This document shows, piece after piece, positions 1-12,706 of a stretch of 12,706 bases of DNA (position 1 is the stretch's first letter; every line of letters begins with the position of its first letter). A program made the position numbers and the translations under genes. The stretch is taken from contig CAZEBC010000122.1 in the NCBI GenBank assembly GCA_964510165.1, positions 1 to 12,706 of the forward strand, given 5' to 3'. This DNA comes from an uncultured bacterium. Its GTDB lineage: Bacteria; Abyssobacteria; SURF-5. The notes below the pieces were generated by a model. That model was not told where the DNA came from. It saw only the letters and a program-made list of their open reading frames with translations, and ran no database searches.

Positions 1-15
1 CCCGCCTCACGCCAC

Positions 16-44
16 TTGACAGATACTGTTTCTTGGGATAAAAT
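16..44 (+). promoter_or_regulatory. sigma70-type promoter P1
   Basis: TTGACA (16-21), 17-bp spacer, TAAAAT (39-44): perfect -35 and 5/6 -10 in an AT-rich intergenic region. Confidence 0.75.
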
Positions 45-63
45 ATTAACCTGCTGATTATAT

Positions 64-103
64 GCGGGACGCTCTCCTTTCCTGTGTGTTCCGCTATTTT
101 CTT
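64..103 (+). terminator. Intrinsic-terminator-like hairpin downstream of P1 (possible 3' end of a ~50-nt RNA)
   Basis: GCGGGACGC (64-72) pairs with GTGTTCCGC (86-94): 9 bp including two G-U pairs, a 13-nt pyrimidine-rich loop, then TATTTTCTT (95-103). The G-U pairs only form on the + strand. Confidence 0.45.
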
Positions 104-130
104 GACATCTGGCAAAGAGGTAAGTAAAAT
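102..130 (+). promoter_or_regulatory. sigma70-type promoter P2 for the ketosynthase/kinase operon
   Basis: TTGACA (102-107), 17-bp spacer, TAAAAT (125-130). Same hexamers as P1, 130 nt upstream of the GTG at 261. Confidence 0.8.
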
Positions 131-150
131 AGTTCCAAAAAGGCGAAGCA

Positions 151-197
151 ACACTACATATAGTACCTATTTGGTATAGACTTTCAATATACAGAAG
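151..197. promoter_or_regulatory. Tandem NrdR-box-like operators
   Basis: ACACTACATATAGTAC (151-166) matches the consensus acaCwAtATaTwGtgt at 13/16. TTTCAATATACAGAAG (182-197) matches the core CwATATATwG at 9/10. The boxes are offset by 31 bp and lie just downstream of P2. Confidence 0.55.
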
Positions 198-260
198 CTG
201 TCGGTCCGAACCCCGGCCATTACGCTGTACCGGGCATGCGGGGAGAAGGGGTGCGTACAC

Positions 261-1508
261 GTGGATAGGCGTTGCGTCGTCACAGGACTCGGTGTTGTTT
301 CGTCAGTCGGAATCGGCAAGGAAGCCTTCTGGGACTCGCTCACTCACGGCAGGTCCGGCATTGCCCGCATTACCTATTTCGATACCTCGAAACTGCCCGT
401 GCATCATGCGGGCGAGGTGAAAGGTTTCAATGCCGCGGACTATGTTGACGACCTCCGCTTGGAGATGACCGGCCGCTACGTCCATTTCGCCATCGCAGCC
501 ACCAAGATGGCGCTTCAAGACGCCGGCATCGAGCCGGACAAGTTTGAGAAGTCGCGCCTCGCTATGTTCGGCGGCACCACTGCCGCCTCTGTCGACGCAT
601 ACGAAAAACATCTCGGCGGCGCAATCAAAGACGATCCCTTCAATGCCCCGCCCTACGCATTCGCCTCAGTCACGGTGCACGCCGCTGTGGGTGAAGCGGC
701 ACAAACAACGAGCCTGTTCGATTCCTCAACCACGATTTCCACTCATTGCACCTCCGGCGTCAACGCAATCGGCGCCGGTCTCAAAGAGATCCGAAGCGGG
801 CGGAGAGACATTGTGGTCGCCGGCGCCACGGAAAGCACGCTTTCCTATTATGCCTTCATTGCCTATATATTGGCGGGGCTGCTAGTGCCGGATGATGGCA
901 TCGTTCCTGAAAAAATCATGCGGCCCTTTGACAAGAACCGACGGGGAGGAGTTGTCGCGGAGGGGGCGGCTTTCGTAGTGCTCGAGGAGTTGGAGCATGC
1001 CCTGGCACGAGGAGCGCGCATATACGGAGAGGTTGCGGGACACGGATATAAGGACAGGTTCCAAGGCCCAAAGGCGACCCAGCGCACGATGGCTGACGCG
1101 ATGCAGGCAGCCATGGCCGACGCGCGCATATCGCCGGCCCAAGTCGAGTATGTTCTGGCAAATGGAAGCTCTACTGTCGTTCAAGATAAGATGGAAACGA
1201 GGGCGCTCAAGGAAATATTCGGCGCACATGCATATCGCATCCCCATAAGCGCGATAAAATCGATGATCGGCATCCCCAATTCCGCCATAGGACCAATGCA
1301 ATTAATCGCCGCGCTTCTTTCCTTCCAAACCGATATCATCCCTCCCACCATTAATTACGAAACCCCCGACCCCGAGTGCGACCTTGATTACGTCCCGAAC
1401 AGCGCCCGCTTGAACCATGTGAACGTGGCGATCATCAATAACCATGGCATGGATGGCGCCTGTGCAGCATTGATTGCAAAACGATACCAGAGCAACACTC
1501 ACGGATAG
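261..1508 (+). CDS. Beta-ketoacyl-ACP synthase family protein (FabF/KAS II fold), catalytically degenerate: Cys retained, both His lost
   Basis: 415 aa, GTG start after a purine-rich RBS (GGGAGAAGGGG). Family motifs: RCVVTGLGVVS, THCTSG (Cys163), RPFDKNR..EGA..VLEELEHALARGARIYGEV, IKSMIG, IIPPTINYETPDPECDLDYVPN. The canonical NAHGTST reads LANGSST and KSMxGH reads KSMIGI, so fabF is not assigned. Confidence 0.92.
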   Translation: MDRRCVVTGLGVVSSVGIGKEAFWDSLTHGRSGIARITYFDTSKLPVHHAGEVKGFNAADYVDDLRLEMTGRYVHFAIAATKMALQDAGIEPDKFEKSRLAMFGGTTAASVDAYEKHLGGAIKDDPFNAPPYAFASVTVHAAVGEAAQTTSLFDSSTTISTHCTSGVNAIGAGLKEIRSGRRDIVVAGATESTLSYYAFIAYILAGLLVPDDGIVPEKIMRPFDKNRRGGVVAEGAAFVVLEELEHALARGARIYGEVAGHGYKDRFQGPKATQRTMADAMQAAMADARISPAQVEYVLANGSSTVVQDKMETRALKEIFGAHAYRIPISAIKSMIGIPNSAIGPMQLIAALLSFQTDIIPPTINYETPDPECDLDYVPNSARLNHVNVAIINNHGMDGACAALIAKRYQSNTHG

Positions 1509-1571
1509 ATAACAAACCCCGGTCTTGCGTGAGGAACCGGCAAGGACTGAGCCCCTGCCGCAGAGCGCCCA

Positions 1572-4121
1572 ATGGAATTAAGATCTCTGAGCATCCTCGT
1601 TAGCACGCTGCTAGCCTTCATCCTTGGGACATATGTCTTCGCCAAGAACCCCAAGAGGATCATCAATATTTCCTTCCTCGCCTTGCTCTACAGCAGCGGC
1701 GCATGGGCTCTTTCTCTGTTCGTGCTAAGCATTGGCACTCGGTACGAGGTGCTCAAATTCGCCGGCCATATGGCGTTCTCAACGGGATCGCTCATGGCAT
1801 GTCATTTCCTCCTCTTTGCCTATGTATTCCCCGAGAAAAGCGAAGAATTCCCGTCCCTGCGAACGTTGCTACTCATCTATGTGCCCACCGCACTTGTTGT
1901 GGCTGCGGGCTTCACCCCACTCGTGATGAAGGACATCACATATGTCAACTCCTCTGTGCGCCCCGTATATGGAAAGGGTATCTTTTTTGTATTGATTTAT
2001 GACACCGCTTATTCCACAGCCGGCCTTTACTTGCTCGCTCGAAAATACCTGAGCCGGCCGGGAGGCTTCGAACGGGCTCAGCTCAAATACATGCTGTGGG
2101 GAATGTTGCTCACCGTCGTCGGAATTGTTGCATTCGCGCTGCTCTTGCCGCTTGTCGGCAACGCCGAATACTCGAGTCCGTTCACCGCGGTCTTGATCAT
2201 GCTCGCCACGGGTGCCATCTCTTACGCCATCGTGCGGCATCGGCTCATGGACCTCGGGGTGGTGTTCAGAAACGCCTTGATCTATGTTATCATGGTCACC
2301 GCGCTCAGCGTGGCCGTCATCCTGCTTCTGCTGATGATTATGCCGGTCTTGCGTCTGGATTGGCGCGACGGCACGTTTCTCGCCGTTGCGCTCGCCGCTC
2401 TCCTTGTGTACCCCGTGCGCCACGGCGTCGAAGTAGTCGTGGACAGATACTTCTTCCGCGGCCGCTATAATTACCAGGCGGCGCTCACCGAGTTCAGTTC
2501 CTCCATGACCAGAATCCTCGACCTCGAGGACCTTCAGAACAGGATCGTCCATGAGGTTGCGTCCATCCTGCAGGTGAAAACTGCGGCCCTGCTGCTCTAC
2601 GAACCGAACGAACAAACATACACAGTCCGGGCTTCTCTGCCCGCAAGCCTCAAGGATTTGCACCACGGCATCCCCGCCTCCAGCCCCGTCTCCGAACGAA
2701 TCAACAAGGAGCGTTCTTTGCTGGTTAAGGAAGAGATCAAACGCATGCTGCCCCGCTCCGAATATGAGCCGCTCAGGCCCGATTTCGAGCGAATCGAGGC
2801 GGAAGTCTTCATCCCCCTCATCTATCGAGGTGAGCTTATCGGTCTGCTCACGCTCGGAGAGAAATGCTCCACCGACATCTATTCCAGCGAGGACCTCAAC
2901 CTGCTCGTGACCCTCGGCAATCAGGCCGCAGTGGCCCTCGAAAACGCGCTGCTGCACTATACGGTCACCATGCTGAAGAACCATAACGACAACATCCTGA
3001 AATACATGAGCAGCGGCGTCATCGCCATCGACCGCGAACAGGTCATAAATACGTGCAATGAGAAGGCGCGTGAGGTCCTCAAACTCGCCCCCGCTGGCGT
3101 GATAAACAAGAAGATCGACGTGCTGCCGCCGCTCCTGCGCTCAATGCTCGCCGACACCCTCAACGGAAGAACGCGCTTCTCCAACCAGGACGTCCAGATA
3201 CTCACCGGCGATGTCACCACTTCGTACCTGAGCGCAAGCACCTCCTTGATAAGAGATGAAAGGGGCGACGTCATCGGAGCCTTGCTCGTGTTCAACGACC
3301 TCACCGACATCAAACGCATCGAAAGCGAGATGTGGCGCGCCGACAAGCTCGCCTCGCTCGGAACCCTCGCCGCCGGCATGGCCCACGAAATAAAAAACCC
3401 ACTCGTTTCCATCAAGACCTTCGCCCAGCTTCTCCCAAGCAAGTACGAGGACAAAGACTTCCGCGACACATTTTCCTCCATCACCGTCGATGAGGTCGAA
3501 CGCATAAACACCATTGTCGAAAAACTCCTCGAGTTCGCGCGCCCCTCCGCCCCCACCTTCGGACAGGTCGACGTCATCGAGGTCATTGACGAGGTCTTGC
3601 TCCTCCTCAGTTCCGAAGTCGTCAAACTGGGAATCACCGTGACAAAGAACTACGAAGTGTCCTCCGCCCCGATTGTCGGAGACAAGGGGCAACTCAAACA
3701 GGCAATGCTCAATCTCTGCCTCAACGCCATGCAGGCCATTGACGGAACGGGAAGAGCCGGAGACCTCACGATCAGCGTCGGCTTCAGAAAGAGCAGATAC
3801 CGCCGTTTCGACGGAATCGGCCAGGACCAGGTCGCACAGATGTTTTACGGCGCCGAACTCGTCGCCTCCACCGACGACGCCGAGACCCTCCTCATCAAGG
3901 TCCGCGACACGGGCAAGGGAATCAGCCGCGAAAACCTCCCCAGAATCTTCGACCCCTTCTTCACCACAAAGGAAAAAGGCCTCGGCCTCGGCCTCGCCGT
4001 CGTTCATGGTATAATCAAGGACCATTCGGGCAATATCACCGTGGACAGCAAGAAAAACGTGGGTACCGAGTTCACCATCTCGCTGCCCGTCACCCAATTC
4101 TTCGCCAAGGAAAGGGTGTAG
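1572..4121 (+). CDS. Membrane sensor histidine kinase HK1: HisKA_7TM-type N-terminal region (~9 TM) - GAF - PAS - HisKA - HATPase_c
   Basis: 849 aa with about nine hydrophobic helices and a YAIVRHRLMD motif. GAF (IPLIYRGELIGLLTLG..NQAAVALENA), PAS (MSSGVIAID..CNEKA..LLVFNDLT), H-box MAHEIKNPL (His605), N-box NLCLNAMQA, DTGKGI, FDPFFTTK, GLGLGL. Confidence 0.95.
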   Translation: MELRSLSILVSTLLAFILGTYVFAKNPKRIINISFLALLYSSGAWALSLFVLSIGTRYEVLKFAGHMAFSTGSLMACHFLLFAYVFPEKSEEFPSLRTLLLIYVPTALVVAAGFTPLVMKDITYVNSSVRPVYGKGIFFVLIYDTAYSTAGLYLLARKYLSRPGGFERAQLKYMLWGMLLTVVGIVAFALLLPLVGNAEYSSPFTAVLIMLATGAISYAIVRHRLMDLGVVFRNALIYVIMVTALSVAVILLLLMIMPVLRLDWRDGTFLAVALAALLVYPVRHGVEVVVDRYFFRGRYNYQAALTEFSSSMTRILDLEDLQNRIVHEVASILQVKTAALLLYEPNEQTYTVRASLPASLKDLHHGIPASSPVSERINKERSLLVKEEIKRMLPRSEYEPLRPDFERIEAEVFIPLIYRGELIGLLTLGEKCSTDIYSSEDLNLLVTLGNQAAVALENALLHYTVTMLKNHNDNILKYMSSGVIAIDREQVINTCNEKAREVLKLAPAGVINKKIDVLPPLLRSMLADTLNGRTRFSNQDVQILTGDVTTSYLSASTSLIRDERGDVIGALLVFNDLTDIKRIESEMWRADKLASLGTLAAGMAHEIKNPLVSIKTFAQLLPSKYEDKDFRDTFSSITVDEVERINTIVEKLLEFARPSAPTFGQVDVIEVIDEVLLLLSSEVVKLGITVTKNYEVSSAPIVGDKGQLKQAMLNLCLNAMQAIDGTGRAGDLTISVGFRKSRYRRFDGIGQDQVAQMFYGAELVASTDDAETLLIKVRDTGKGISRENLPRIFDPFFTTKEKGLGLGLAVVHGIIKDHSGNITVDSKKNVGTEFTISLPVTQFFAKERV

Positions 4122-4122
4122 C

Positions 4123-6141
4123 ATGGAAATCATAGTCGTTGCGTCAAGTGAAAATAGCGTGCAAGATTCCTTCCGCGTCCTCTTCGGAGACGAACACATG
4201 CTCGTCCCCACACGCACGCTCCCCCAGTTGCTCAACGCCCTCGTCGAACATCCGGTTGACCTCGTCGTGCTGGACGAGTTCCTCGAGAACACCGACTGTC
4301 TCACCGTCTTTCAGAGAATCCGCTCGCTCGCCCCCGAGCTTACCTGCATCCTCCTCACCCTCCAGACCAATTCGGAGACGGCCCGCCAGATGCGGGCAAA
4401 GGGCGTCTACGACGTCGTCGCCAAACCATTCGACAAGGAGGCTCTCGCCTCCTCCGTGACGAGGGCGGTCGAGCGCGCGCAACTGCTCCAGAAACTCGCC
4501 GCAGCCAGACGCAGCCTCGACGGGAAAATCGCGCAGCCCGACTCCGCCCTCTTCGCAACCGACCCGGCCAAAACCCACCGACGCGAGATGCTCGACTCAC
4601 TCAGAAAATTTCTCAGGGCTGCATCCGATGCCTTCGCGCCGGAACGCCTCTACTCCCTCGTCCTGGATGCCGTCGTCGAAATGTTCGCCATCAACAAGGC
4701 GGCTCTGCTCCTCTTCAACGAAGAAGCCCAGCGCATGACGGTCAAGGCCGCCGTCGGGCTTGACTCCGCCAGCCTCACTCAGTTTCGCGTCGCGCCCTGC
4801 CTCGGCCTCGTCTCGTGGCTGAAACGACACGACCAGATACTGAACTGCGACGACCCTGACATTCGCATCAACTCCGAACAGATGATCCCGATAAAGAAGG
4901 AACTCGAACTGTTGCAGGCGAGAATCTGCGTCCCCCTCGCCGCAAGGGGGCGCCTGATCGGAATCCTCACCCTCGGGAAGAAGGTTACCGGCAAGCGCCT
5001 CTCCGAAGACGAACTCGAGTTCCTCTATCTGCTCTCACAGCAGATTGCCGCCATCATCGAGAATGCCCGACAACACCGCGCCGTCTTCGTCCAAAAACAG
5101 AATTTTGAGGAAATCCTGCGCGGCGTCACCTCCGGACTCATGGCAACCGACTCTGACGGACGATTGACCGTGTTCAACAAGGCCGCCGAACAAATACTCG
5201 GGCTGAAGGCCTCCGAAGTGATCGGACAGAACGTGCAGCGCACCGGTTCCATCTTCGCCGATATTGTATACCGCACCCTCCGCGAGGGCAGGTCCTTCTG
5301 CCGACACGAGGTCATGGATCCCGCAACCAAGTCCCTTCTCGGAATAAGCTCCTCGCACCTCACCGACAGCGGCGGCAACCCCATCGGCGCAGTCGTCCTC
5401 TTCACCGACCTCTCCACCGTCAAACGGGCCGGCGCCGGAGTCGCCGACGAAGAGGCCTGGCAGCGTTGCGCCCTGTGTATGGCGCAGGAAATTAAGACTC
5501 CGCTCGTCGCGATTCGCACTTTCACTCAACTTTTCCCCGAAAGCTATGCGGACGAGAAGTTCCGCAACGAGTTCTCGGCCATAGCCCTTAAGGAGATCGA
5601 CAAGCTCGATTCCGCCGTAGAAAGACTGCTCCGATTCTCCCACCCGCTCGAAGTAAAGCCGCAGCCCGGCGATATCAATACGCTGGTCGCGGAAATCATC
5701 GACTCCGTGGCCGAGGCCGCCGCTAAACAGGGCGTCAAGGTCAAGAAGGATTTCGGAGTATCCAACGGTGTCCTTTCGTTTGACAGAACCCTGCTGAGCG
5801 AAGCGCTCATCCAGATAATCAACAATGCCATCGAGGCAATGCCCCAGGGAGGCACTCTCTCCGTGTCCACGAGCCTGAGGAATAACACCCGGCCAAGCCA
5901 GAACGGCATGCCGCCCGGCGCCTCCGTAGAAATCATCGTCTCAGACACGGGACCGGGAATCACCCCCGAAGAAATGGCCAACCTCTTTAAGCCCTTCCAT
6001 ACCACCAAGGTCAAGGGAATGGGGCTCGGTCTCGCAACATCCAGACGCATCGTCAGAGGACACAACGGCGAGGTCATGATCTCCAGCGACCCCGGCAAGG
6101 GAACTGTTGTAAGGGTTGTACTACCGCAAGGAACATCGTAA
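4123..6141 (+). CDS. Cytoplasmic histidine-kinase-like protein HK2: atypical REC - GAF - PAS - HisKA(H->Q) - HATPase_c, probable pseudokinase
   Basis: 672 aa; the ATG is 1 nt after the HK1 stop. REC (DLVVLD, LLT, AKPF), GAF (VPLAARGRLIGILTLG), PAS (TSGLMATD..FNKAAEQILG). H-box reads MAQEIKTPL. N (INNAIEA), G1 (DTGPGI), F (FKPFHTTK) and G2 (GMGLGL) boxes are intact. Confidence 0.93.
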   Translation: MEIIVVASSENSVQDSFRVLFGDEHMLVPTRTLPQLLNALVEHPVDLVVLDEFLENTDCLTVFQRIRSLAPELTCILLTLQTNSETARQMRAKGVYDVVAKPFDKEALASSVTRAVERAQLLQKLAAARRSLDGKIAQPDSALFATDPAKTHRREMLDSLRKFLRAASDAFAPERLYSLVLDAVVEMFAINKAALLLFNEEAQRMTVKAAVGLDSASLTQFRVAPCLGLVSWLKRHDQILNCDDPDIRINSEQMIPIKKELELLQARICVPLAARGRLIGILTLGKKVTGKRLSEDELEFLYLLSQQIAAIIENARQHRAVFVQKQNFEEILRGVTSGLMATDSDGRLTVFNKAAEQILGLKASEVIGQNVQRTGSIFADIVYRTLREGRSFCRHEVMDPATKSLLGISSSHLTDSGGNPIGAVVLFTDLSTVKRAGAGVADEEAWQRCALCMAQEIKTPLVAIRTFTQLFPESYADEKFRNEFSAIALKEIDKLDSAVERLLRFSHPLEVKPQPGDINTLVAEIIDSVAEAAAKQGVKVKKDFGVSNGVLSFDRTLLSEALIQIINNAIEAMPQGGTLSVSTSLRNNTRPSQNGMPPGASVEIIVSDTGPGITPEEMANLFKPFHTTKVKGMGLGLATSRRIVRGHNGEVMISSDPGKGTVVRVVLPQGTS

Positions 6142-6142
6142 C

Positions 6143-7738
6143 ATGCACAAGATTCTCGTTGTCGATGACGAACTCAGCGTCCGCGAATCCATCCGCATCA
6201 TCTTGAAAGACAGCTATGACGTGATCCTGATGGATTCCGGCGAAGCCGCAATCGAATATCTCAAATTCAACGACGTCGCCCTCGTGTTCCTGGACATCCT
6301 CATGCCCGGCATCTCGGGACTCGAAACGCTCAAGGTCATCAAAGCTCGCAAGAGCCCTCCCGAGGTCGTCATCGTCACGGCCACGCGCACTGTCAAGAAC
6401 GCCGTCGATGCCATGAAACACGGCGCCTTCGAGTATGTCACCAAACCCTTCGATGTCGATGAACTCAAGCTCATCGCCGAACGCGGAATCGAGAACCGGC
6501 GCCTTGTCCAGGAATGCGCGTCGCTCAAGGCTCAGATGGAGGAGGAGAAAAACCGCTTCTACAGGGAACTCGAGGGAAAAGTCCGCGAACGTACCCTCGA
6601 GCTCGAAGAGACAAACAAGAAGCTCCGTGAAACCCACGAGCAGCTTGTCCGCTCCGAAAAGCTCGCGTCACTTGGAGAACTCGTGGCCGGAGTCGCCCAC
6701 GAGCTCAACAACAAGCTTCTCCCCGTCCTCGCATATGCCCAACTCCTCAAAGAACAGAAATTCCCCGACAACATCCTGCGCTACATCGACACCATCGAGC
6801 GCTCAGCCTCCGGCGCCGCTTCGGTCGTCAGTTCCCTCCTTAACTTCGCCCGACCCTCCAGCACCACCCGCTATCCCGTCGACCTCAACGCCACCATGCG
6901 CGAAACCCTCGCGCTTCTCGACTACAAGATTAAGGCCGGCAATGTCAAGGTCGCTGTCCAACTTGACGACCGTTTACCGCTCACCATGGCCGACGAGAAA
7001 CAGATAGCACAAGTGTTCCTCAATATCATAAATAACGCCTTCCAGGCCATGGAACCTCGCGGAGGAAACCTGACAATCCGCTCCGCAAAAGTCGGCAACC
7101 AGATGGAATTCTCCATCTCCGACACCGGATGCGGCATCCCTGAGGAGCACCTCATTAAGATATTCGACCCCTTCTTCTCCACCAAGGGATCGGGAGGAAC
7201 CGGCCTCGGACTCAGTGTCTCGCACGGACTCATAAAGGCTCATCAGGGCGAGATCAATGTGAAAAGCAAGAAGGGCGAGGGCACTACCTTCATAATCAAA
7301 CTGCCCATAACCAAGACCGTCAAGAAGGAGGACGCCAAGGTCGAAACCGCTCCTGCGGAGACCGACAAGAAAAGGCGCCGGGTGCTCGTGGCCGAGGACG
7401 ATCCGGAATGCAGGTCCGTCATCAGTGACATATTGCGAAACGACCATATGGTCACCGCAGTGGGCAACGGCGAGGAAGCCCTCACCAAACTCGCCAAAGA
7501 AACCTACGACCTCCTCATCGTCGACTGCAAGATGCCCGGCTTCACCGGCGTCGAACTCTATAAGTGGCTGCTCAAAAATAAATCCGAGCTGCAAAGGAAA
7601 GTCGTGTTCATCACCGGGGTCTTCTTCGTTCCCGAAATACGCTCATTCATCGAGAGCACCGGATGCCCTTATATCGTCAAGCCGTTTGCGCTGGAAGACC
7701 TCAAACATACGGTCAATATGGCCCTGGCCAACTCCTGA
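6143..7738 (+). CDS. Hybrid histidine kinase/response regulator HK3: REC - coiled coil - HisKA - HATPase_c - REC
   Basis: Start placed at the ATG at 6143 (MHKILVVDDE), 1 nt after the HK2 stop and downstream of AAGGA. Canonical REC (VDDE, FLDILMPG, TKPF), H-box VAHELNNKL, NIINNAFQA, DTGCGI, FDPFFSTK, GTGLGL. C-terminal REC (AEDD, VDCKMPG, ITG, VKPF). Confidence 0.95.
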   Translation: MHKILVVDDELSVRESIRIILKDSYDVILMDSGEAAIEYLKFNDVALVFLDILMPGISGLETLKVIKARKSPPEVVIVTATRTVKNAVDAMKHGAFEYVTKPFDVDELKLIAERGIENRRLVQECASLKAQMEEEKNRFYRELEGKVRERTLELEETNKKLRETHEQLVRSEKLASLGELVAGVAHELNNKLLPVLAYAQLLKEQKFPDNILRYIDTIERSASGAASVVSSLLNFARPSSTTRYPVDLNATMRETLALLDYKIKAGNVKVAVQLDDRLPLTMADEKQIAQVFLNIINNAFQAMEPRGGNLTIRSAKVGNQMEFSISDTGCGIPEEHLIKIFDPFFSTKGSGGTGLGLSVSHGLIKAHQGEINVKSKKGEGTTFIIKLPITKTVKKEDAKVETAPAETDKKRRRVLVAEDDPECRSVISDILRNDHMVTAVGNGEEALTKLAKETYDLLIVDCKMPGFTGVELYKWLLKNKSELQRKVVFITGVFFVPEIRSFIESTGCPYIVKPFALEDLKHTVNMALANS

Positions 7739-7796
7739 CGCCCAAACTGGCGGCCAAGCCGTTTCGACATGCGGTTGTGCGAATCTATGGATTCTT

Positions 7797-7878
7797 GTAG
7801 GCGTAGGCCTTGCGCCTGCCCAATTGCTGACAATCGCAACCCCTTGTAAGGGCGCCACGCCCAGGCGTGGTTGCGCCC
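7797..7878 (+). repeat. Pair of REP-like GTAG/GTAA-headed palindromes
   Basis: CTT-GTAG-GCGTAGGCCTTGCGCCTGCCC (7797-7821) and CTT-GTAA-GGGCGCCACGCCCAGGCGTGGTTGCGCCC (7846-7878). Each is a tetranucleotide head plus a GC-rich hairpin ending in GCCC, in the same orientation, 49 bp apart. Confidence 0.5.
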
Positions 7879-7921
7879 GTATTAAGTTACATTAAGCTTC
7901 GATCCGCTGACAGGTTCTCGG

Positions 7922-10255
7922 ATGCATACAGCTTATCTCCCAGCAAGACTGGCGGGCAGGTATCCCAAGATCATACTTGTCTTCTCGTTCCTGCTGACGT
8001 TGCTGCTTCTCGCCGGCATACCGAAACTCAAGATGCGCCCCTTCTTCGAGGGCGACTTGCCGGCGCACGACCCCATCATACGCGCCAACGAACACTACAC
8101 CGCGTATTTCGGCTCCGATGAAAAAGCCTATCTCGCGCTGGTGAGCGACAACATCTATAACCCTTCCACCCTTGCGAAAATCACCGCCATCACCGAGGAA
8201 CTCAACCAGCTCGACGACGTCCTCACGGAGCAAACGCTCAGCCTCGCGACGGCAAGAAAGGTGAAATGGCGTGAGTGGGGCCTCGACATCCGAAAGTATC
8301 TGACCCCGCTTCCGACCACCCCCGAGGAAATAGAGCGCCTCCGTCAGGACGTCCGCCTCGACAAGGACATCCATGGCCGGCTCGTCTCGAACGATGAAAA
8401 GGCCGCGCTCTTCGCAATCAAGCTCGACCCGGGATATGACCATCGCAAACTCCATTCCTCGCTCTACTCGATCGCCCAAAAGTATTCCGGCCCCGAACAC
8501 ATCTATCCCTTCGGACACCAGATCATGAACGAGGAAGCCAACCAGGGCATGCGGCACGACCTGATGGTGCTCGGGCCGGCGGCCCTCCTATCAATGGGAA
8601 TAGGCATCTTCATCTTCTTCCGCTCCGTCAGGGTTACGCTCGGCCCGGTACTGGTCATCATTATGAGCATCATTTGGACTTTCGGGTTGATGCGCTGGCT
8701 TGGATTGCCCATATCGGTCCTCAGCTCCTCAATGCCTCCAATGCTCATCGCTATAGGCAGTTCCTATGCAATCCACGTGCTCTATGGCTGCAAGGAAGCC
8801 TCTTCCGGGATGACCCCAAAAGAACGAGTGGCCGAGGGAGTGGCAAGGACTACCTCTCCCATACTGCTCGCCGCCCTGAACTCCATGGTCGGCTTCGCAA
8901 CACTGGTCACCTTCAAGGTCCTTTCCATACGGGAATTCGGGCCATGCGTCGCCTTGGGCGTGGCGCTCGCCGCAGTCTTTTCTTTGATCGTCCTACCCGC
9001 AATTTTGACGCTGCAGAAGAGTTTTCTGGAGGATTCGCGGCGCAGTCGAATATGGTCATTCGACGCCGTCCTCGCCGACTTCGCTGACGCCCTCACCAGA
9101 CACAAGTACCTCGTCGTCGGAATTGTCTTGCTTCTTCTGGTCGTCTCTGCGGCGGGCATCATGAGACTCAAGGTCGGCGTTGTGCCCGAGGAAATATTCC
9201 CGCCCGGCCACCGGGCCCGGCACACCATCTCCGTGTTCACCCGGTATTTCCAGGGACCCTACAATCTAAACGTGATGATCACCGCAGAGCGCCCCGACGG
9301 ACTTAAGTCCCCCGAAGCGCTTAAGGAGATAGAGAAATTCCAGAAGTTTGCGGAAGAACTCCCCCGCGTGAAGTATGCCGCCTCTATCGTGGATATCATC
9401 AAGAGGATGAACCGCATACTAAACGAGGATGACCCGGCCTATGACACTCTCCCGGACAGCGAGGAGATGATCGCTCAACTCCTGCTCCTCCATTCCATCA
9501 CGCAGGAGCCCGTCCAGTTCAGCAGCCTGATAGACTACGATTTCCAGCGGTGCAAGGTAAGCATCTCAACCACTACAATCGACAGCATCCAACTGGAAGA
9601 CATCTACTATCGCCTGCGGCAGTATGCGGACGAAAACATGGGGGCGGGACTAAAAGCCGATTTCGGCGGGCGAAGCATGGTCTGGATTGCCCAGAACCAT
9701 TACATCATCCGCGGAAAGATAATCAACATTATCACGAGCACCTTCGTCATCTGGGCAATCTGTGCTCTCGCCTTCCGCTCCATAGGCGTGGGACTCATAA
9801 GCATTGTCCCCCTGTCGTTCGCGACTATCATGACATTCGGCGTGATGGGATGGTTCGGCATCAGGCTCGATATGACCACTGCCGTGCTTACCGGCATCTC
9901 GGTCGGCATAGGACTCGATTTCGCCATTTACTTTATTGCGAGACTCAAACGCGCCATGCTCAACGCCGACCGCATCGACGAAGCCCTGCGCGCTGCAATG
10001 GGCACCGCAGGAATGGCGATTGTGTTCGACGCCACCGTAAATATGCTCGGCTTCTCCGTGGTCATGCTCTCAGGTTTCACCCCGGCCAGACGACTCGGAT
10101 TCCTCATATGCTTCAACATGCTGGTATGCCTGGCGCTGACCCTGATCATCATCCCGGTGATATTTGCCCTTGTTCCGTTCCCTCTCGCACACATGCGTAA
10201 GGAGGCTCTCTTGCTTCAAAATGAGGAAAGACCGGCGCCCGCCTCAGTCGAATAA
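7922..10255 (+). CDS. MMPL/RND-superfamily transporter (putative lipid or hydrophobic-molecule exporter)
   Basis: 777 aa with two internal repeats, each an N-terminal TM, a large extracytoplasmic loop and about five TMs. Motifs IAIGSSYAIHV and ISVGIGLDFAIYF, SMVGFATL..IREFG, MLGFSVVMLSGFTP..LG. Confidence 0.92.
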   Translation: MHTAYLPARLAGRYPKIILVFSFLLTLLLLAGIPKLKMRPFFEGDLPAHDPIIRANEHYTAYFGSDEKAYLALVSDNIYNPSTLAKITAITEELNQLDDVLTEQTLSLATARKVKWREWGLDIRKYLTPLPTTPEEIERLRQDVRLDKDIHGRLVSNDEKAALFAIKLDPGYDHRKLHSSLYSIAQKYSGPEHIYPFGHQIMNEEANQGMRHDLMVLGPAALLSMGIGIFIFFRSVRVTLGPVLVIIMSIIWTFGLMRWLGLPISVLSSSMPPMLIAIGSSYAIHVLYGCKEASSGMTPKERVAEGVARTTSPILLAALNSMVGFATLVTFKVLSIREFGPCVALGVALAAVFSLIVLPAILTLQKSFLEDSRRSRIWSFDAVLADFADALTRHKYLVVGIVLLLLVVSAAGIMRLKVGVVPEEIFPPGHRARHTISVFTRYFQGPYNLNVMITAERPDGLKSPEALKEIEKFQKFAEELPRVKYAASIVDIIKRMNRILNEDDPAYDTLPDSEEMIAQLLLLHSITQEPVQFSSLIDYDFQRCKVSISTTTIDSIQLEDIYYRLRQYADENMGAGLKADFGGRSMVWIAQNHYIIRGKIINIITSTFVIWAICALAFRSIGVGLISIVPLSFATIMTFGVMGWFGIRLDMTTAVLTGISVGIGLDFAIYFIARLKRAMLNADRIDEALRAAMGTAGMAIVFDATVNMLGFSVVMLSGFTPARRLGFLICFNMLVCLALTLIIIPVIFALVPFPLAHMRKEALLLQNEERPAPASVE

Positions 10256-10279
10256 CTCACGGACCCAACGCCACGGCAA

Positions 10280-10331
10280 GGGGCTGTTGCGGAATACCAA
10301 CACGAAAACGGGAATCCCTTCAAACAGTCCT
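10280..10331. terminator. Imperfect inverted repeat between convergent genes (possible terminator or IS-end remnant)
   Basis: GGGGCTGTT (10280-10288) can pair with AACAGTCCT (10323-10331), including G-U pairs. It lies in the 98-bp gap between two stop codons. The loop is long and there is no clear U-tract. Confidence 0.25.
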
Positions 10332-10353
10332 CAATCCAAAGCCCGCAATTCCT

Positions 10354-11523
10354 TCAGGCCTTCCACACACCCGGTATCGGCGTCTTGCAGTATGCGCAGT
10401 GACCGCCGTCAATCGCAACCTCAAGAATCCTGAAACCCAGACGCTGGATGACCGGCTTCTTGCAATGCGCACAGTACGTCGATTCTCCCTCGTGGCCCGG
10501 CACGTTGCCCACATAGGCGTAATTCAGCCCCTTCTCCATCGCGATCTCCCGAGCCCGCTCAAGCGTGGAGACCGGCGTCGGCGGCAGGTTCTTGATCTTG
10601 TAGGTCGGATGAAACCGCGTGAAATGAATGGGCACGTCGGGGCCGAGTTCATCATGAACCCACGCGCACATCTGCTGGATTTCCTCCTCGCCGTCATTCA
10701 GTGTCGGAATCATGAGCACGACGAGCTCGTTCCACATCTTCTCCCGTCTCAGCACCTTGAGCGTATCGAGCACAGGCCGGAGTTCCCCGCTGCAAATCTC
10801 TTTGTAAAACTTGTCCGTGAATGCCTTCAGGTCCACCTTGACGGCGCTCAAGTGTTCGCATAGCCCGACCATCGGCTTTTCCTCGATATACCCGTTCGAG
10901 ATCATCACGCTCTTCACGCCCTGCTCCCGCGCAAGCTTCGCGGTATCATACATGTATTCGTAAAAAACCACAGGCTCGCTGTAAGTGAACGCAATCGACT
11001 CGATCCCGTTTGACTTTGCCTGCCTGACCACCTCTTCCGGCGGAAAATTAATGCTCCTCACCTGCTCCGGCCTGAACTGCGAGATTTCCCAGTTCTGACA
11101 AAACTTGCACTCGATATTGCAGCCCGCAGTCGCTATCGAGAGCGCCTTTGCGCCCGGCAGAAAATGGAACAACGGCTTCTTCTCGATAGGGTCCACGTTC
11201 ATCGAGCAAACCCGTCCATAAACGAGAGTGCGATACGAAGCGTCGATGTTCTCGCGCACGCCGCAATAGCCGCGCTCCTTTATGGCGACCTTGCATGCCC
11301 TCGGGCAAATCTCGCATTCAATCCGCCCTTCCTCCAGACGCTTGTAATGCATGGCCTCTCGCACAAACGGCTCAGGCCCGACTTCATCCCTCGCCAACGC
11401 CTCGCCAGGGACGCTCGCACCCTCTTCTCTGCCGAGCCACCAATAGGCGGCAAGCCCCCCGCCGACACCTGCCGCCGCCGCTCCCGTCTTCACCAGAAAA
11501 TCTCTTCGAAACATCCCGCTCAT
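10354..11523 (-). CDS. amrS: AmmeMemoRadiSam system radical SAM enzyme with an N-terminal twin-arginine signal/anchor
   Basis: 389 aa. CEICPRAC..GYCGVREN, DPIEKKPLFHFLPG, radical SAM motif GCNIECKFCQNWEISQ, FTYSEP, IHFTRFHP.YK..LPPTP, YVGNVPG..TYCAHC..CAYC. The N-terminus FRRDFLVK is followed by a hydrophobic stretch. The start could alternatively be 11514. Confidence 0.93.
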   Translation of the reverse strand: MSGMFRRDFLVKTGAAAAGVGGGLAAYWWLGREEGASVPGEALARDEVGPEPFVREAMHYKRLEEGRIECEICPRACKVAIKERGYCGVRENIDASYRTLVYGRVCSMNVDPIEKKPLFHFLPGAKALSIATAGCNIECKFCQNWEISQFRPEQVRSINFPPEEVVRQAKSNGIESIAFTYSEPVVFYEYMYDTAKLAREQGVKSVMISNGYIEEKPMVGLCEHLSAVKVDLKAFTDKFYKEICSGELRPVLDTLKVLRREKMWNELVVLMIPTLNDGEEEIQQMCAWVHDELGPDVPIHFTRFHPTYKIKNLPPTPVSTLERAREIAMEKGLNYAYVGNVPGHEGESTYCAHCKKPVIQRLGFRILEVAIDGGHCAYCKTPIPGVWKA

Positions 11524-11538
11524 TCTCGCCGCCGAAAT

Positions 11539-12585
11539 CTATGTGATGACAACCCTTGAAATCCTCTGCATATTGCCGACCCCCAGCCCTCGTCGCTCCG
11601 CCGTGCCGATGTGCTTAGGCTCGCGGCCGACATCCTTCAAAGGAGGCATCCCCGCCTCCTTCCTCTTGCGCTCAATCATATCCCAACCCACACCGTCCAC
11701 GGCCACGGGATCGCGCCCGACAATCAGCGCCCCTGCCGGCCACGCCCATTGAGGCCTGGGAGCCGGGCCGCCGTGATACTGCCCCTTCAGGCCGTCACAA
11801 ATGACGAGCCGCAGCTTTTTCGCCACGAAAGGATGCGCGCACAAGTCGGCCACGTATGGATCGCAATTGTTATCATGATACTTGTTCGGATTGTGGATGG
11901 CCCCATAGAAATTCTTCATCCCGAGCGATACACCCGCAAGGTCGTGATCCTTCAAGACCGGCACGTTTATGAGCGCTGTGCACATCCGCGAGATGATCCG
12001 GCTGAAACAGGAGCCCACCTCGCCCGAAAATTCTATCGAACTCTCATAGCCGACCCCCGCCGAGTCTGTGGCCAATACCCTCGCGCCGCTCAAACCTGAC
12101 ATCCTGAATCCTGCCGACATGAGATCGTGCTCCGTGCGGTCCCACACGACGATTCTTTCCCTGGAAATCCCAGCCGCCGCCAGGCCGTCAACGATCGCGG
12201 TCACAAGCTCCGGATGAGACGACAGCCCGACACCCGCGAGACAGTTGACCTTGATCCCCACGGTGTCGCCGGGCAAGAACATGCTTTTCCACCCCGACCG
12301 CGCGTCGGGTTTGCCCGTCACTGCGGCAATGGATTCATTCAGCAGCGCGCCAACCTCGGAAATCTTCACCTTGCCGTCCCTCTCGGCAGCCGATTCCCGG
12401 CTCGCCACGACCACCTTCGCCTCCGAACCTGAAGCCGCGAAGACAGAAACCGGCGCGCCTTCGCTGTCCGCCGCTCCCGCCCTTGTCTCAGCGGTCGCCA
12501 GCCCGCTCTGTCCCAACATCACCGACGCCGGGACCGATGCAACGTACTCAAGAAATCGCCGACGCGTGTGTCTTAACTTGCTCAT
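11539..12585 (-). CDS. DUF362 domain protein with a Tat signal peptide
   Basis: Start placed at the ATG at 12585 (MSKLRHTRRRFLEYV..GLATA). DUF362-type motifs GDTVGIKVN, SHPELV, INVPVLKDH..AGVSLGMKN.YG, D...GQY.GGP, GRDPVAVD. It ends 15 nt before amrS, consistent with an operon. Confidence 0.88.
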   Translation of the reverse strand: MSKLRHTRRRFLEYVASVPASVMLGQSGLATAETRAGAADSEGAPVSVFAASGSEAKVVVASRESAAERDGKVKISEVGALLNESIAAVTGKPDARSGWKSMFLPGDTVGIKVNCLAGVGLSSHPELVTAIVDGLAAAGISRERIVVWDRTEHDLMSAGFRMSGLSGARVLATDSAGVGYESSIEFSGEVGSCFSRIISRMCTALINVPVLKDHDLAGVSLGMKNFYGAIHNPNKYHDNNCDPYVADLCAHPFVAKKLRLVICDGLKGQYHGGPAPRPQWAWPAGALIVGRDPVAVDGVGWDMIERKRKEAGMPPLKDVGREPKHIGTAERRGLGVGNMQRISRVVIT

Positions 12586-12667
12586 ACGGGAAGATGTCCT
12601 AGCGGGATGCTGTCTATGGACGAATGCTGCATGAAAGAAACACTTTTCTCGGGGACTTCGCACCACT

Positions 12668-12697
12668 ATTCTAACGCCCCAAGCGAGAATATGTCAA
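12668..12697 (-). promoter_or_regulatory. sigma70-type promoter for the DUF362-amrS operon
   Basis: The minus strand reads TTGACA (12697-12692), 18-bp spacer, TAGAAT (12673-12668), about 80 nt upstream of the ATG at 12585. Confidence 0.7.
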
Positions 12698-12706
12698 AGC
12701 CAGCCG

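Follow-up and report, generated by a model that had tools for sequence, protein, structure and literature searches.

What remains of a ketosynthase (KS) that has kept its acyl-accepting cysteine and lost both catalytic histidines, and what is its gene doing directly in front of a series of sensor kinase genes? This question is raised by a contig of an uncultured bacterium of the Abyssobacteria (SURF-5), CAZEBC010000122.1 of GenBank assembly GCA_964510165.1. We analysed it over its full length of 12,706 nucleotides (nt; positions 1 to 12,706 of the forward strand), referred to here as the window. The gene at positions 261 to 1508 encodes a FabF-like protein that we call KS*. An initial annotation, made from the letters of the window and a list of its open reading frames (ORFs), had described KS* as a stand-alone, non-elongating KS and had suggested that it might be an acyltransferase, an acyl-thioester sensor or a heterodimer partner. 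Our analysis supports its assignment as a non-elongating KS of the FabF family. It adds two new findings, namely the loss of the FabF-type docking surface for acyl carrier protein (ACP) and the membership of KS* in a KS-kinase module that is conserved far beyond this lineage. Also absent from the initial annotation were His140 and Gly206, invariant in the clade, and two promoter-like sites in front of the gene. If the signalling reading proposed below is right, the novelty at the level of the system would be higher.

Active site, docking surface and descent of KS*

The gene and its key residues lie at the following positions.

261 to 1508, plus strand: KS*, a FabF-fold protein of 415 amino acids (aa) with Cys-Asn-Ile replacing Cys-His-His; GTG start (Pfam, NCBIfam, HMMER, AlphaFold2, Foldseek)
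747 to 749, plus strand: TGC codon of Cys163, position of the acyl-accepting nucleophile (alignment to 4ls5, codon checked)
1161 to 1163, plus strand: AAT codon of Asn301, position of the first catalytic His (alignment to 4ls5, codon checked)
1257 to 1274, plus strand: KSMIGI, with Lys333 kept and Ile338 (ATC, 1272 to 1274) at the position of the second catalytic His (alignment, codon checked)
1437 to 1457, plus strand: NNHGMDG instead of NSFGFGG (gate, oxyanion loop), with His395, Met397 and Asp398 (alignment)

KS* is covered end to end by the N- and C-terminal ketoacyl-synt domains of Pfam (PF00109 and PF02801). Its best NCBIfam model is fabF (TIGR03150), which it matched with 338 bits, below the cut-off of 493.75. 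An AlphaFold2 model built on 45 relatives reached a pLDDT of 89.2 and a pTM of 0.93. Compared by Foldseek with solved FabFs, this model gave TM-scores of 0.93 to 0.95 at 31 to 38% identity (TM 0.94 for Bacillus subtilis FabF, 4ls6). The confident model and its superposition on FabFs indicate that KS* is a complete FabF-type protein that folds well and whose active site has been rebuilt. A search of a protein atlas with KS* returned generic KS clusters only, and public records name the KS* genes "3-oxoacyl-ACP synthase II" or "beta-ketoacyl-ACP synthase family protein". Annotation as a FabF-type synthase would miscount fatty-acid capacity.

In an HMMER alignment with B. subtilis FabF (4ls5), THCTSG of KS* pairs with TACATG, so that Cys163 is kept. 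LANGSST pairs with NAHGTST, which places Asn301 at the position of His303, and KSMIGI pairs with KSMTGH, which places Ile338 at the position of His340 and retains Lys333. The gate motif NSLGFGG reads NNHGMDG (GFGG to GMDG), and the GDAYHITAP loop is gapped and shortened to KDRFQGP. The initial annotation had called Cys163, Asn301, Ile338, NNHGMDG and KDRFQGP, and both the alignment and the codon check bear it out. It had also stated that the window holds no ACP or other fab gene. The Pfam scan of eight window ORFs agrees, as neither a PP-binding nor a further fab domain was found in them.

According to a preprint on FabF (10.1101/2021.02.13.431092), the two histidines take part in decarboxylation, and the phosphopantetheine arm is held by Thr270, Ser271, Thr305 and Thr307. 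The gate is described in another study (PMC7138838) as two loops, GFGG at 399 to 402 and residues 265 to 275, tied by Asp265. KS* has other residues in place of the two decarboxylation histidines, the gate motif GFGG, Asp265 and Thr270, and is therefore not an ordinary elongating ketoacyl-ACP synthase (KAS) II, which upholds the earlier non-elongating reading. Thiolases carry Cys-Asn-His, at positions equivalent to those of KAS enzymes, plus a second catalytic Cys in a C-terminal CxG loop. A thiolase-like Cys-Asn-His site was considered for KS* and rejected, because the second position is Ile338 and position 395 is His or Tyr.

These residue states are conserved. A word-indexed search of 5.8 billion proteins found 48 relatives of KS* at 57 to 100% identity, followed by a sharp fall to at most 45% for ordinary FabFs, and among 1.84 billion cluster representatives, all scanned with HMMER, the clade corresponded to a single 50% cluster (P0020). 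Residues were counted in an alignment of 45 full-length members, 57 to 79% identical to KS*. Cys163 and Ile338 are present in all 45, Asp398 in 44, Asn301 in 43 (the exceptions being one His, in P0030, and one Ser) and Lys333 in 43 (two Arg). The Phe400 position is Leu or Met in 41 members, so that the gate reads G(L/M)DG. Lys or Arg occupies the Asp265 position in 41, and Lys, Met or Arg the Thr270 position. His395 is found in 32 of the 45 sequences, with Tyr in 8. Relative to 14 canonical FabFs, the changes fixed in the clade are N140H (45/45), A164T, H268G, H303N, H340I, Gly to Ser at position 341 and G401D. The alignment holds 62 invariant columns.

The frame is intact in the window copy and in eight of eight orthologues; a single TAA reported for one of the genomes (G002) lies within a 418-aa open frame and was absent from later readings. 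Nei-Gojobori comparison of the eight KS* orthologues gave pN values of 0.15 to 0.25 with synonymous sites saturated (pS 0.66 to 0.76), and the least saturated pair, the source genome (G000) and G001, had a dN/dS of 0.10. In the same genomes, the median pN was 0.246 for KS* versus 0.127 for the housekeeping FabF (28 pairs each). The rate at which KS* evolves is thus about double that of FabF, although purifying selection is clear. The Cys/Asn/non-His proteins are a conserved clade (n = 45) under purifying selection (dN/dS about 0.1) and not the product of decay. The initial annotation had named, as the pattern that would speak for decay, orthologues of the same context with both histidines together with a relaxed dN/dS; inside the phylum we found neither.

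A search of genome contigs with generic FabF motifs (CDLDYVPN, PTINYExPD) recovered ordinary FabFs only, at 33 to 40% identity. With the degenerate pattern KSxxGIPNSxxGPM, a metagenome search recovered two contigs, among them one (L099) that carries the same operon as the window. Another protein, P0173, is 39% identical to KS* and forms a separate lineage with Cys-Asn-Lys-Ile at the four key positions; it falls outside the KS* clade in both trees described below, which suggests convergent loss.

The second change in KS* concerns its surface. As described by Mindrebo et al. (PMC7138838), the interface of Escherichia coli FabF with AcpP comprises region 1 (Lys65, Arg68 and Lys69), region 2 (Arg127, Lys128 and Arg206) and a hydrophobic patch (residues 129 to 132 and 205). 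We transferred the E. coli numbering by way of the genome's own FabF (K65, R68, R69, K127, R128, C163, R206), not by way of an aligned E. coli FabF, and summed the net charge over stretches 62 to 72, 124 to 132 and 203 to 209. Canonical FabFs (n = 14) have a mean of 4.36 basic residues at the six docking positions (range, 3 to 6) and a net charge of +4.50 (2 to 6). The module KSs of other phyla introduced below (n = 13) have a mean of 3.62 and a net charge of +4.15 (1 to 7). In the KS* clade (n = 45) the mean is 0.24, with 34 members having none and 11 having one, and the net charge is -1.36 (-4 to +2). None of the six positions is basic in the window KS*, and the Arg206 position is Gly (Gly206) in 45 of 45 members. 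P0274, from the sister family f2 (n = 1), likewise has no basic docking position and a net charge of -3.

The residues lost indicate that the KS* clade has dismantled malonyl handling plus the canonical reception of any ACP-borne substrate, with the Cys still kept. An acyl-ACP-fed role is less likely once the docking surface is lost. The clade amounts to a natural separation-of-function mutant, in which condensation and ACP docking are gone and the Cys is invariant, and it therefore offers a clean system for studying the acyl-enzyme step alone in a ketosynthase fold. What KS* shares with FabF/KAS II is the fold, the length, Cys163, the Lys of KSMxG and the Ser of the HGTST stretch. It differs by the replacement of His303 by Asn, His340 by Ile, GFGG by G(L/M)DG, Asp265 by Lys or Arg, Thr270 by Lys or Met and His268 by Gly. 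In addition, it lacks all six basic docking residues, scores below the TIGR03150 cut-off and is encoded outside any fab operon. Judged by its residues, KS* appears to be neofunctionalised, having lost the His pair, the Phe gate, the Asp265/Thr270 loop and the basic docking surface and having gained His140, Gly206 and Asp398.

The source genome (97% complete) contains only two full KS genes. The second encodes a FabF on contig C62, directly after acpP, and its motifs are canonical (Cys163, DAYHITAP, AHGTST, KSHMGH and NSFGFGG). A second carrier protein of this genome is encoded on contig C80, after an FkbH-like gene, and is unrelated to the KS* operon. Descent was examined with quick IQ-TREE trees, in which the deeper joins had SH-aLRT values of 84 to 92 and were not starred. 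The FabFs of the phylum fall inside the canonical FabF clade, which is starred (99*). KS* forms a starred clade of its own, with a stem of 0.55 to 0.57, which comes last in a grade of stand-alone KSs of non-canonical type. An origin of KS* as a recent duplicate of the phylum's own FabF was rejected by this placement.

The KS-kinase module

KS* heads a predicted five-gene operon. Behind it come a seven-transmembrane (7TM) sensor histidine kinase (HK), a receiver-kinase whose H-box is dead, a hybrid kinase and, last, an HAE3/MMPL exporter of the resistance-nodulation-division (RND) type. The genes that follow KS* are listed below.

1572 to 4121, plus strand: HK1, HisKA_7TM-GAF-PAS-HisKA-HATPase_c, 849 aa, with an intact H-box, AHEIKNPL (domain scan)
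4123 to 6141, plus strand: HK2, receiver-GAF-PAS-HisKA-HATPase_c, with the H-box CMAQEIKTPL, in which Gln stands for the phospho-His (domain scan)
6116 to 7738, plus strand: HK3, a receiver-HisKA-HATPase_c-receiver hybrid kinase (domain scan)
7922 to 10255, plus strand: HAE3/MMPL-type RND transporter with a sterol-sensing-like domain, 777 aa (Pfam; TIGR00921 below cut-off)

KS* stops at 1508 and HK1 starts at 1572 on the same strand, and the window thus has the order of a KS followed by a HisKA_7TM kinase. The set that we searched holds 11 genomes of the phylum, from families f1 and f2, the latter being represented by G010 only. KS* orthologues occur in eight of the nine other f1 genomes. The order of KS* (about 415 aa), three HKs (about 850, 675 and 535 aa) and RND transporter (about 780 aa) was found in all seven f1 loci fetched as well as in the metagenome contig L099. 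In the fetched loci, 0 to 114 nt separate KS* from HK1. Upstream of KS*, the genes vary by genus and include pheST-zapA and genes for a family III coenzyme A (CoA)-transferase, a metallo-beta-lactamase (MBL)-fold hydrolase, an AMP-binding ligase and a B12-radical-SAM enzyme. HK1 and RND orthologues (at least 57% identity) are confined to KS*-bearing f1 genomes, nine of which have all three genes; G004, an f1 genome that is 92% complete, has no KS*, HK1 or RND orthologue. The RND orthologue, at 57 to 62% identity, is present in the eight other KS*-bearing genomes and lies on the KS* contig in seven. In the f2 genome, a homologue of HK1 (33% identical) is preceded by the KS-like P0274 and followed by a receiver-GAF-PAS kinase. 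P0274 has kept the Cys and has Asn at both His positions (ANAGS and KSMIGNP). Altogether, a FabF-like gene stands directly upstream of a HisKA_7TM-GAF-PAS kinase in 10 of the 11 genomes.

This arrangement extends beyond the phylum. We searched 401 genomes with a profile built from KS* and the non-canonical relatives closest to it. Members of the phylum scored 580 to 678 bits, a few genomes of other phyla 452 to 512 bits and canonical FabFs about 405 to 446 bits. The five best matches outside the phylum that lack the second His (L155 to L159) were chosen by profile score, their neighbours not being known beforehand. In five of five, the next downstream gene encodes a HisKA_7TM-GAF kinase, with an IS200 element intervening in one. 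PF16927 (HisKA_7TM) occurs in 105 of the 401 genomes. Ten further loci form a selected set, taken by coordinate cross-match because KS and PF16927 matches lie within 3 kb of each other. Among these, the KS is directly upstream of the kinase in seven, an epimerase gene lies between them in one and tailoring genes in two. Three more module loci, in G394, G169 and G322, were found by coordinates or tblastn, and the module is thus present in 15 families outside the phylum. As a control, we inspected the 25 best-scoring PF16927 loci (at least 96 bits), which belong to a different subfamily, and none had a KS within 1.5 kb; among the next five (73 to 83 bits), three did.

We aligned 13 module KSs from other phyla. 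All have the Cys and the first His, and the second position is His in six, Asn in five and Gln in two; the KS of G394, outside this alignment, has Asp there. Since distant module KSs in other phyla keep both histidines, the His-less state is derived and not module-wide. KS* is the most degenerate member of a widespread module made up of a KS and a HisKA_7TM kinase. B12-radical-SAM enzymes are recurrently encoded directly upstream of the module KS. Further recurrent neighbours are ICMT/PEMT-type membrane methyltransferases, SRPBCC "polyketide cyclase" proteins and FadL-type outer-membrane channels, and, of the signalling type, receiver-HD (HD_5) proteins and a receiver-HTH protein or sigma-54 activator. 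As in the window, a receiver-GAF(-PAS) kinase follows the 7TM kinase in L106 and L156; the kinase at this place in L197 has a GAF domain but no receiver match. In L190, L195, L196 and L199, only the kinase core of the second kinase (plus a PAS domain in L199) was detected by Pfam above the 1e-8 threshold.

Some module loci have architectures of their own. In L198 (G177), the ORF at 5142 to 7088, after genes for the KS, an SRPBCC protein and an ICMT-type enzyme, fuses HisKA_7TM to HD_5 (HD-GYP-like) and has no kinase core, which indicates that the 7TM sensor can drive another output. The module KSs of L197 (5608 to 7203) and L198 (9339 to 11210) have 531 and 623 aa and are extended beyond the KS core. 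In L191 (7420 to 8712; G300) and L192 (2749 to 4026; G145), the Cys-His-His KS is preceded by another KS-like gene, in which Asn replaces the Cys (N-H-S-N), an arrangement that, from its motifs, appears to be a pair of a KS and a protein like a chain-length factor (CLF) within a kinase-coupled cassette.

Possible roles of KS*

We favour the reading that KS* is a non-condensing Cys-acyl enzyme that uses an acyl-thioester not delivered by ACP and serves as a signal-making or signal-processing input of the kinase cascade, and give it a probability of roughly 0.4. Starting from the established fold, residue states, conservation, selection and synteny, we infer acylation, its donor, a product and sensing by HK1 as follows. 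Cys163 would be acylated by an acyl-thioester outside canonical ACP delivery, for which acyl-CoA is the obvious candidate. The acyl group would then be released or handed on as a lipid, to be detected by HK1 through its membrane 7TM domain and transported by the RND pump. KS* could in this way provide the input of the phosphorelay, by analogy with RpfF for RpfC and CqsA for CqsS.

RpfF-RpfC-RpfG, of the DSF system, and CqsA-CqsS pair a signal synthase with a membrane sensor kinase. The KS-kinase module resembles them in that the gene for a lipid-handling enzyme adjoins that for a multi-pass membrane sensor kinase, and the receiver-HD (HD-GYP-like) output in several module loci recalls RpfG. 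It differs in that RpfF and CqsA are a crotonase or a pyridoxal phosphate-dependent enzyme, whereas the module enzyme has a FabF-type scaffold and its sensor a HisKA_7TM-GAF-PAS architecture. The recurrence of B12-radical-SAM, ICMT-type, SRPBCC, FadL and receiver-HD genes points to a small lipid product with a receptor, and the wider module has the appearance of a compact set of lipid-biosynthesis genes linked to a membrane receptor kinase.

The inactive KS0 domains of trans-acyltransferase (trans-AT) polyketide synthases (PKSs), which typically lack the His of the HGTGT motif, offer a second comparison. Like KS*, they keep the Cys, have lost a catalytic His and are not expected to condense. 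A purified KS0 that does not condense was reported to load acyl chains all the same (PMC10952193), which indicates that the first half-reaction can outlive condensation. A KS0, however, is a megasynthase domain that is fed by and feeds neighbouring ACP domains, whereas KS*, a stand-alone ORF of 415 aa, belongs to a signalling operon and has neither the two histidines nor the ACP surface.

A broader proposal, which we advance tentatively, is that FabF-derived proteins and HisKA_7TM kinases make up a widespread, undescribed class of lipid-signal synthases and receptors with radical-SAM and methyltransferase tailoring. In the lineage studied here, the synthase would have become a Cys-only, ACP-independent acyl-transfer enzyme or a covalent lipid sensor that feeds a three-kinase relay and an exporter. 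In a search of the full-text literature, no publication linking a ketosynthase to a 7TM kinase turned up, and HisKA_7TM was mentioned in two papers only, both of them domain surveys. If the proposal is true, the FabF scaffold has been recruited repeatedly as an input device of two-component signalling, and the uncharacterised HisKA_7TM sensor domain can be assigned a ligand class. It would also imply either a new family of lipid-derived signals or cells that read their own acyl pools.

Several points weigh against a signal-making KS*. With the docking patch gone, the acyl donor is left without a canonical ACP route, and the acylation of Cys163 is itself a step that we infer. Arg66, beside the docking site, is kept in 40 of the 45 clade members. 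As His395 is found in only 32 of 45, a new Cys-His-Asp triad is not established. The tailoring genes of other phyla are mostly missing in f1, where a B12-radical-SAM gene lies upstream of KS* in two of seven loci. The operon contains no DNA-binding output gene, and no RNA sequencing run containing this stretch is listed. Finally, the loss of nearly all catalytic devices except the Cys would suit a ligand-binding pseudoenzyme just as well.

Such a pseudoenzyme is the next reading to consider, and we regard it as possible, if doubtful. KS* would make nothing, would bind an acyl-thioester or lipid, possibly covalently at Cys163, and would signal to HK1, HK2 or HK3 by contact; lipid status might, on the same doubtful footing, be coupled to both the phosphorelay and the lipid exporter. 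The catalytic devices and the ACP surface are nearly all gone, yet the fold and the pocket-lining Cys and Lys are conserved, and the docking surface, now acidic or neutral, could fit a new partner. Across the module, the catalytic set drifts (Cys-His-His, -His-Asn, -His-Gln, -His-Asp, -Asn-Asn and -Asn-Ile), with the Cys and the adjoining kinase constant, and the gaps between KS* and HK1 are small (0 to 114 nt). Against this, the polar residues that the clade has newly fixed in or close to the active-site loop (Asp398 and His140) resemble new chemistry more than decay, and the module of other phyla carries tailoring enzymes of a biosynthetic type. Contact between KS* and a kinase was not supported by any test here: a predicted complex of KS* with residues 229 to 590 of HK1 (linker, GAF and PAS) scored 0.00, "no answer", and weighs neither way.

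KS* might instead be a lipid-biosynthetic enzyme that is merely parked beside the kinases and serves membrane lipid synthesis by an acyl-CoA reaction unrelated to them, of the thiolase-like, thioesterase or acyltransferase kind, which we consider unlikely. The kinases would then regulate something else or, just as improbably, only the transcription of KS*. Acyl-CoA enzymes are encoded upstream in G001 (AMP-binding ligase, family III CoA-transferase and MBL-fold hydrolase) and G009 (CoA-transferase), and the operon closes with a lipid-type RND transporter. These upstream genes, however, change by genus, whereas KS* and HK1 are never parted. Moreover, the sister family, whose kinase is 33% identical, and 15 families outside the phylum have the same KS-kinase order, and the control subfamily of HisKA_7TM had a KS nearby at 0 of 25 loci.

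Quite unlikely, in our estimate, is a role as a CLF-like partner, in which KS* would heterodimerise with the housekeeping FabF and alter its product range or activity, as do CLFs, Iga12 and amxFabFmut. KS enzymes are obligate dimers, and a preprint (10.64898/2026.05.19.726425) describes inactive KS homologues that act as partner subunits and in which the Cys is replaced by Gln, Val or Thr. CLFs and amxFabFmut share with KS* the FabF-like fold, the loss of the His pair and retention by selection, and in L191 and L192, from another phylum, a Cys-less KS-like gene adjoins the module KS. The known partners, however, have lost the Cys and are encoded beside an active KS, whereas the KS* clade keeps the Cys in 45 of 45 members and neither the window nor any of the seven f1 loci contains a second KS, the FabF gene lying on contig C62. 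KS* does not branch with the phylum's FabF either. Of the roles suggested in the initial annotation, the sensor has gained from the KS-kinase synteny, an acyl-ACP-fed enzyme has lost ground with the docking surface, and the heterodimer has done so through the absence of an adjacent active KS.

That KS* is a functionless, decaying fabF duplicate, as the lost histidines and the sub-threshold fabF score might suggest, is highly improbable given the intact frames in the window and eight orthologues, the dN/dS of about 0.1, the 62 invariant columns and a tree in which KS* is not a recent copy of the phylum's FabF.

Other features of the window

Two promoter-like sites precede KS*.

16 to 44, plus strand: sigma-70-like promoter site 1, TTGACA-17-TAAAAT, 11/12 (consensus match only)
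102 to 130, plus strand: sigma-70-like promoter site 2, TTGACA-17-TAAAAT, 11/12 (consensus match only)

The 260 bases upstream of KS* have a GC content of 47%, versus 57% in the gene. A consensus scan of the window found no terminator-like site on the plus strand before position 8960, and Rfam gave no match across the whole window. An 86-aa frame on the minus strand (3 to 260) has no family match, overlies this AT-richer stretch with the plus-strand promoter-like sites and is probably spurious. Six DNA sequencing runs contain the stretch, from freshwater, aquatic and hot-spring metagenomes.

The Gln at the phospho-His position of HK2 is present in six of the seven f1 copies in which the motif was found, the window included; G007 keeps the His. 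The site lies near residue 460, and a protein of another phylum (G046) also has Gln there. HK2 is probably a pseudo-kinase that acts via its receiver, GAF and PAS parts.

The gap between HK3 and the RND gene (7739 to 7921) is 183 nt long, versus about 6 nt in relatives. Inverted repeats of high GC content occur in it, and it may represent either a repeat element that was inserted here or a regulatory site within the operon. The end of the operon faces two convergent minus-strand genes, a radical SAM gene of the AmmeMemoRadiSam system (10354 to 11523) and a DUF362 gene (11539 to 12666). The radical SAM gene matched TIGR04337 with 416 bits, above the cut-off, and an opposite-strand radical SAM ORF also follows the RND gene in three relatives (L094, L095 and L097).

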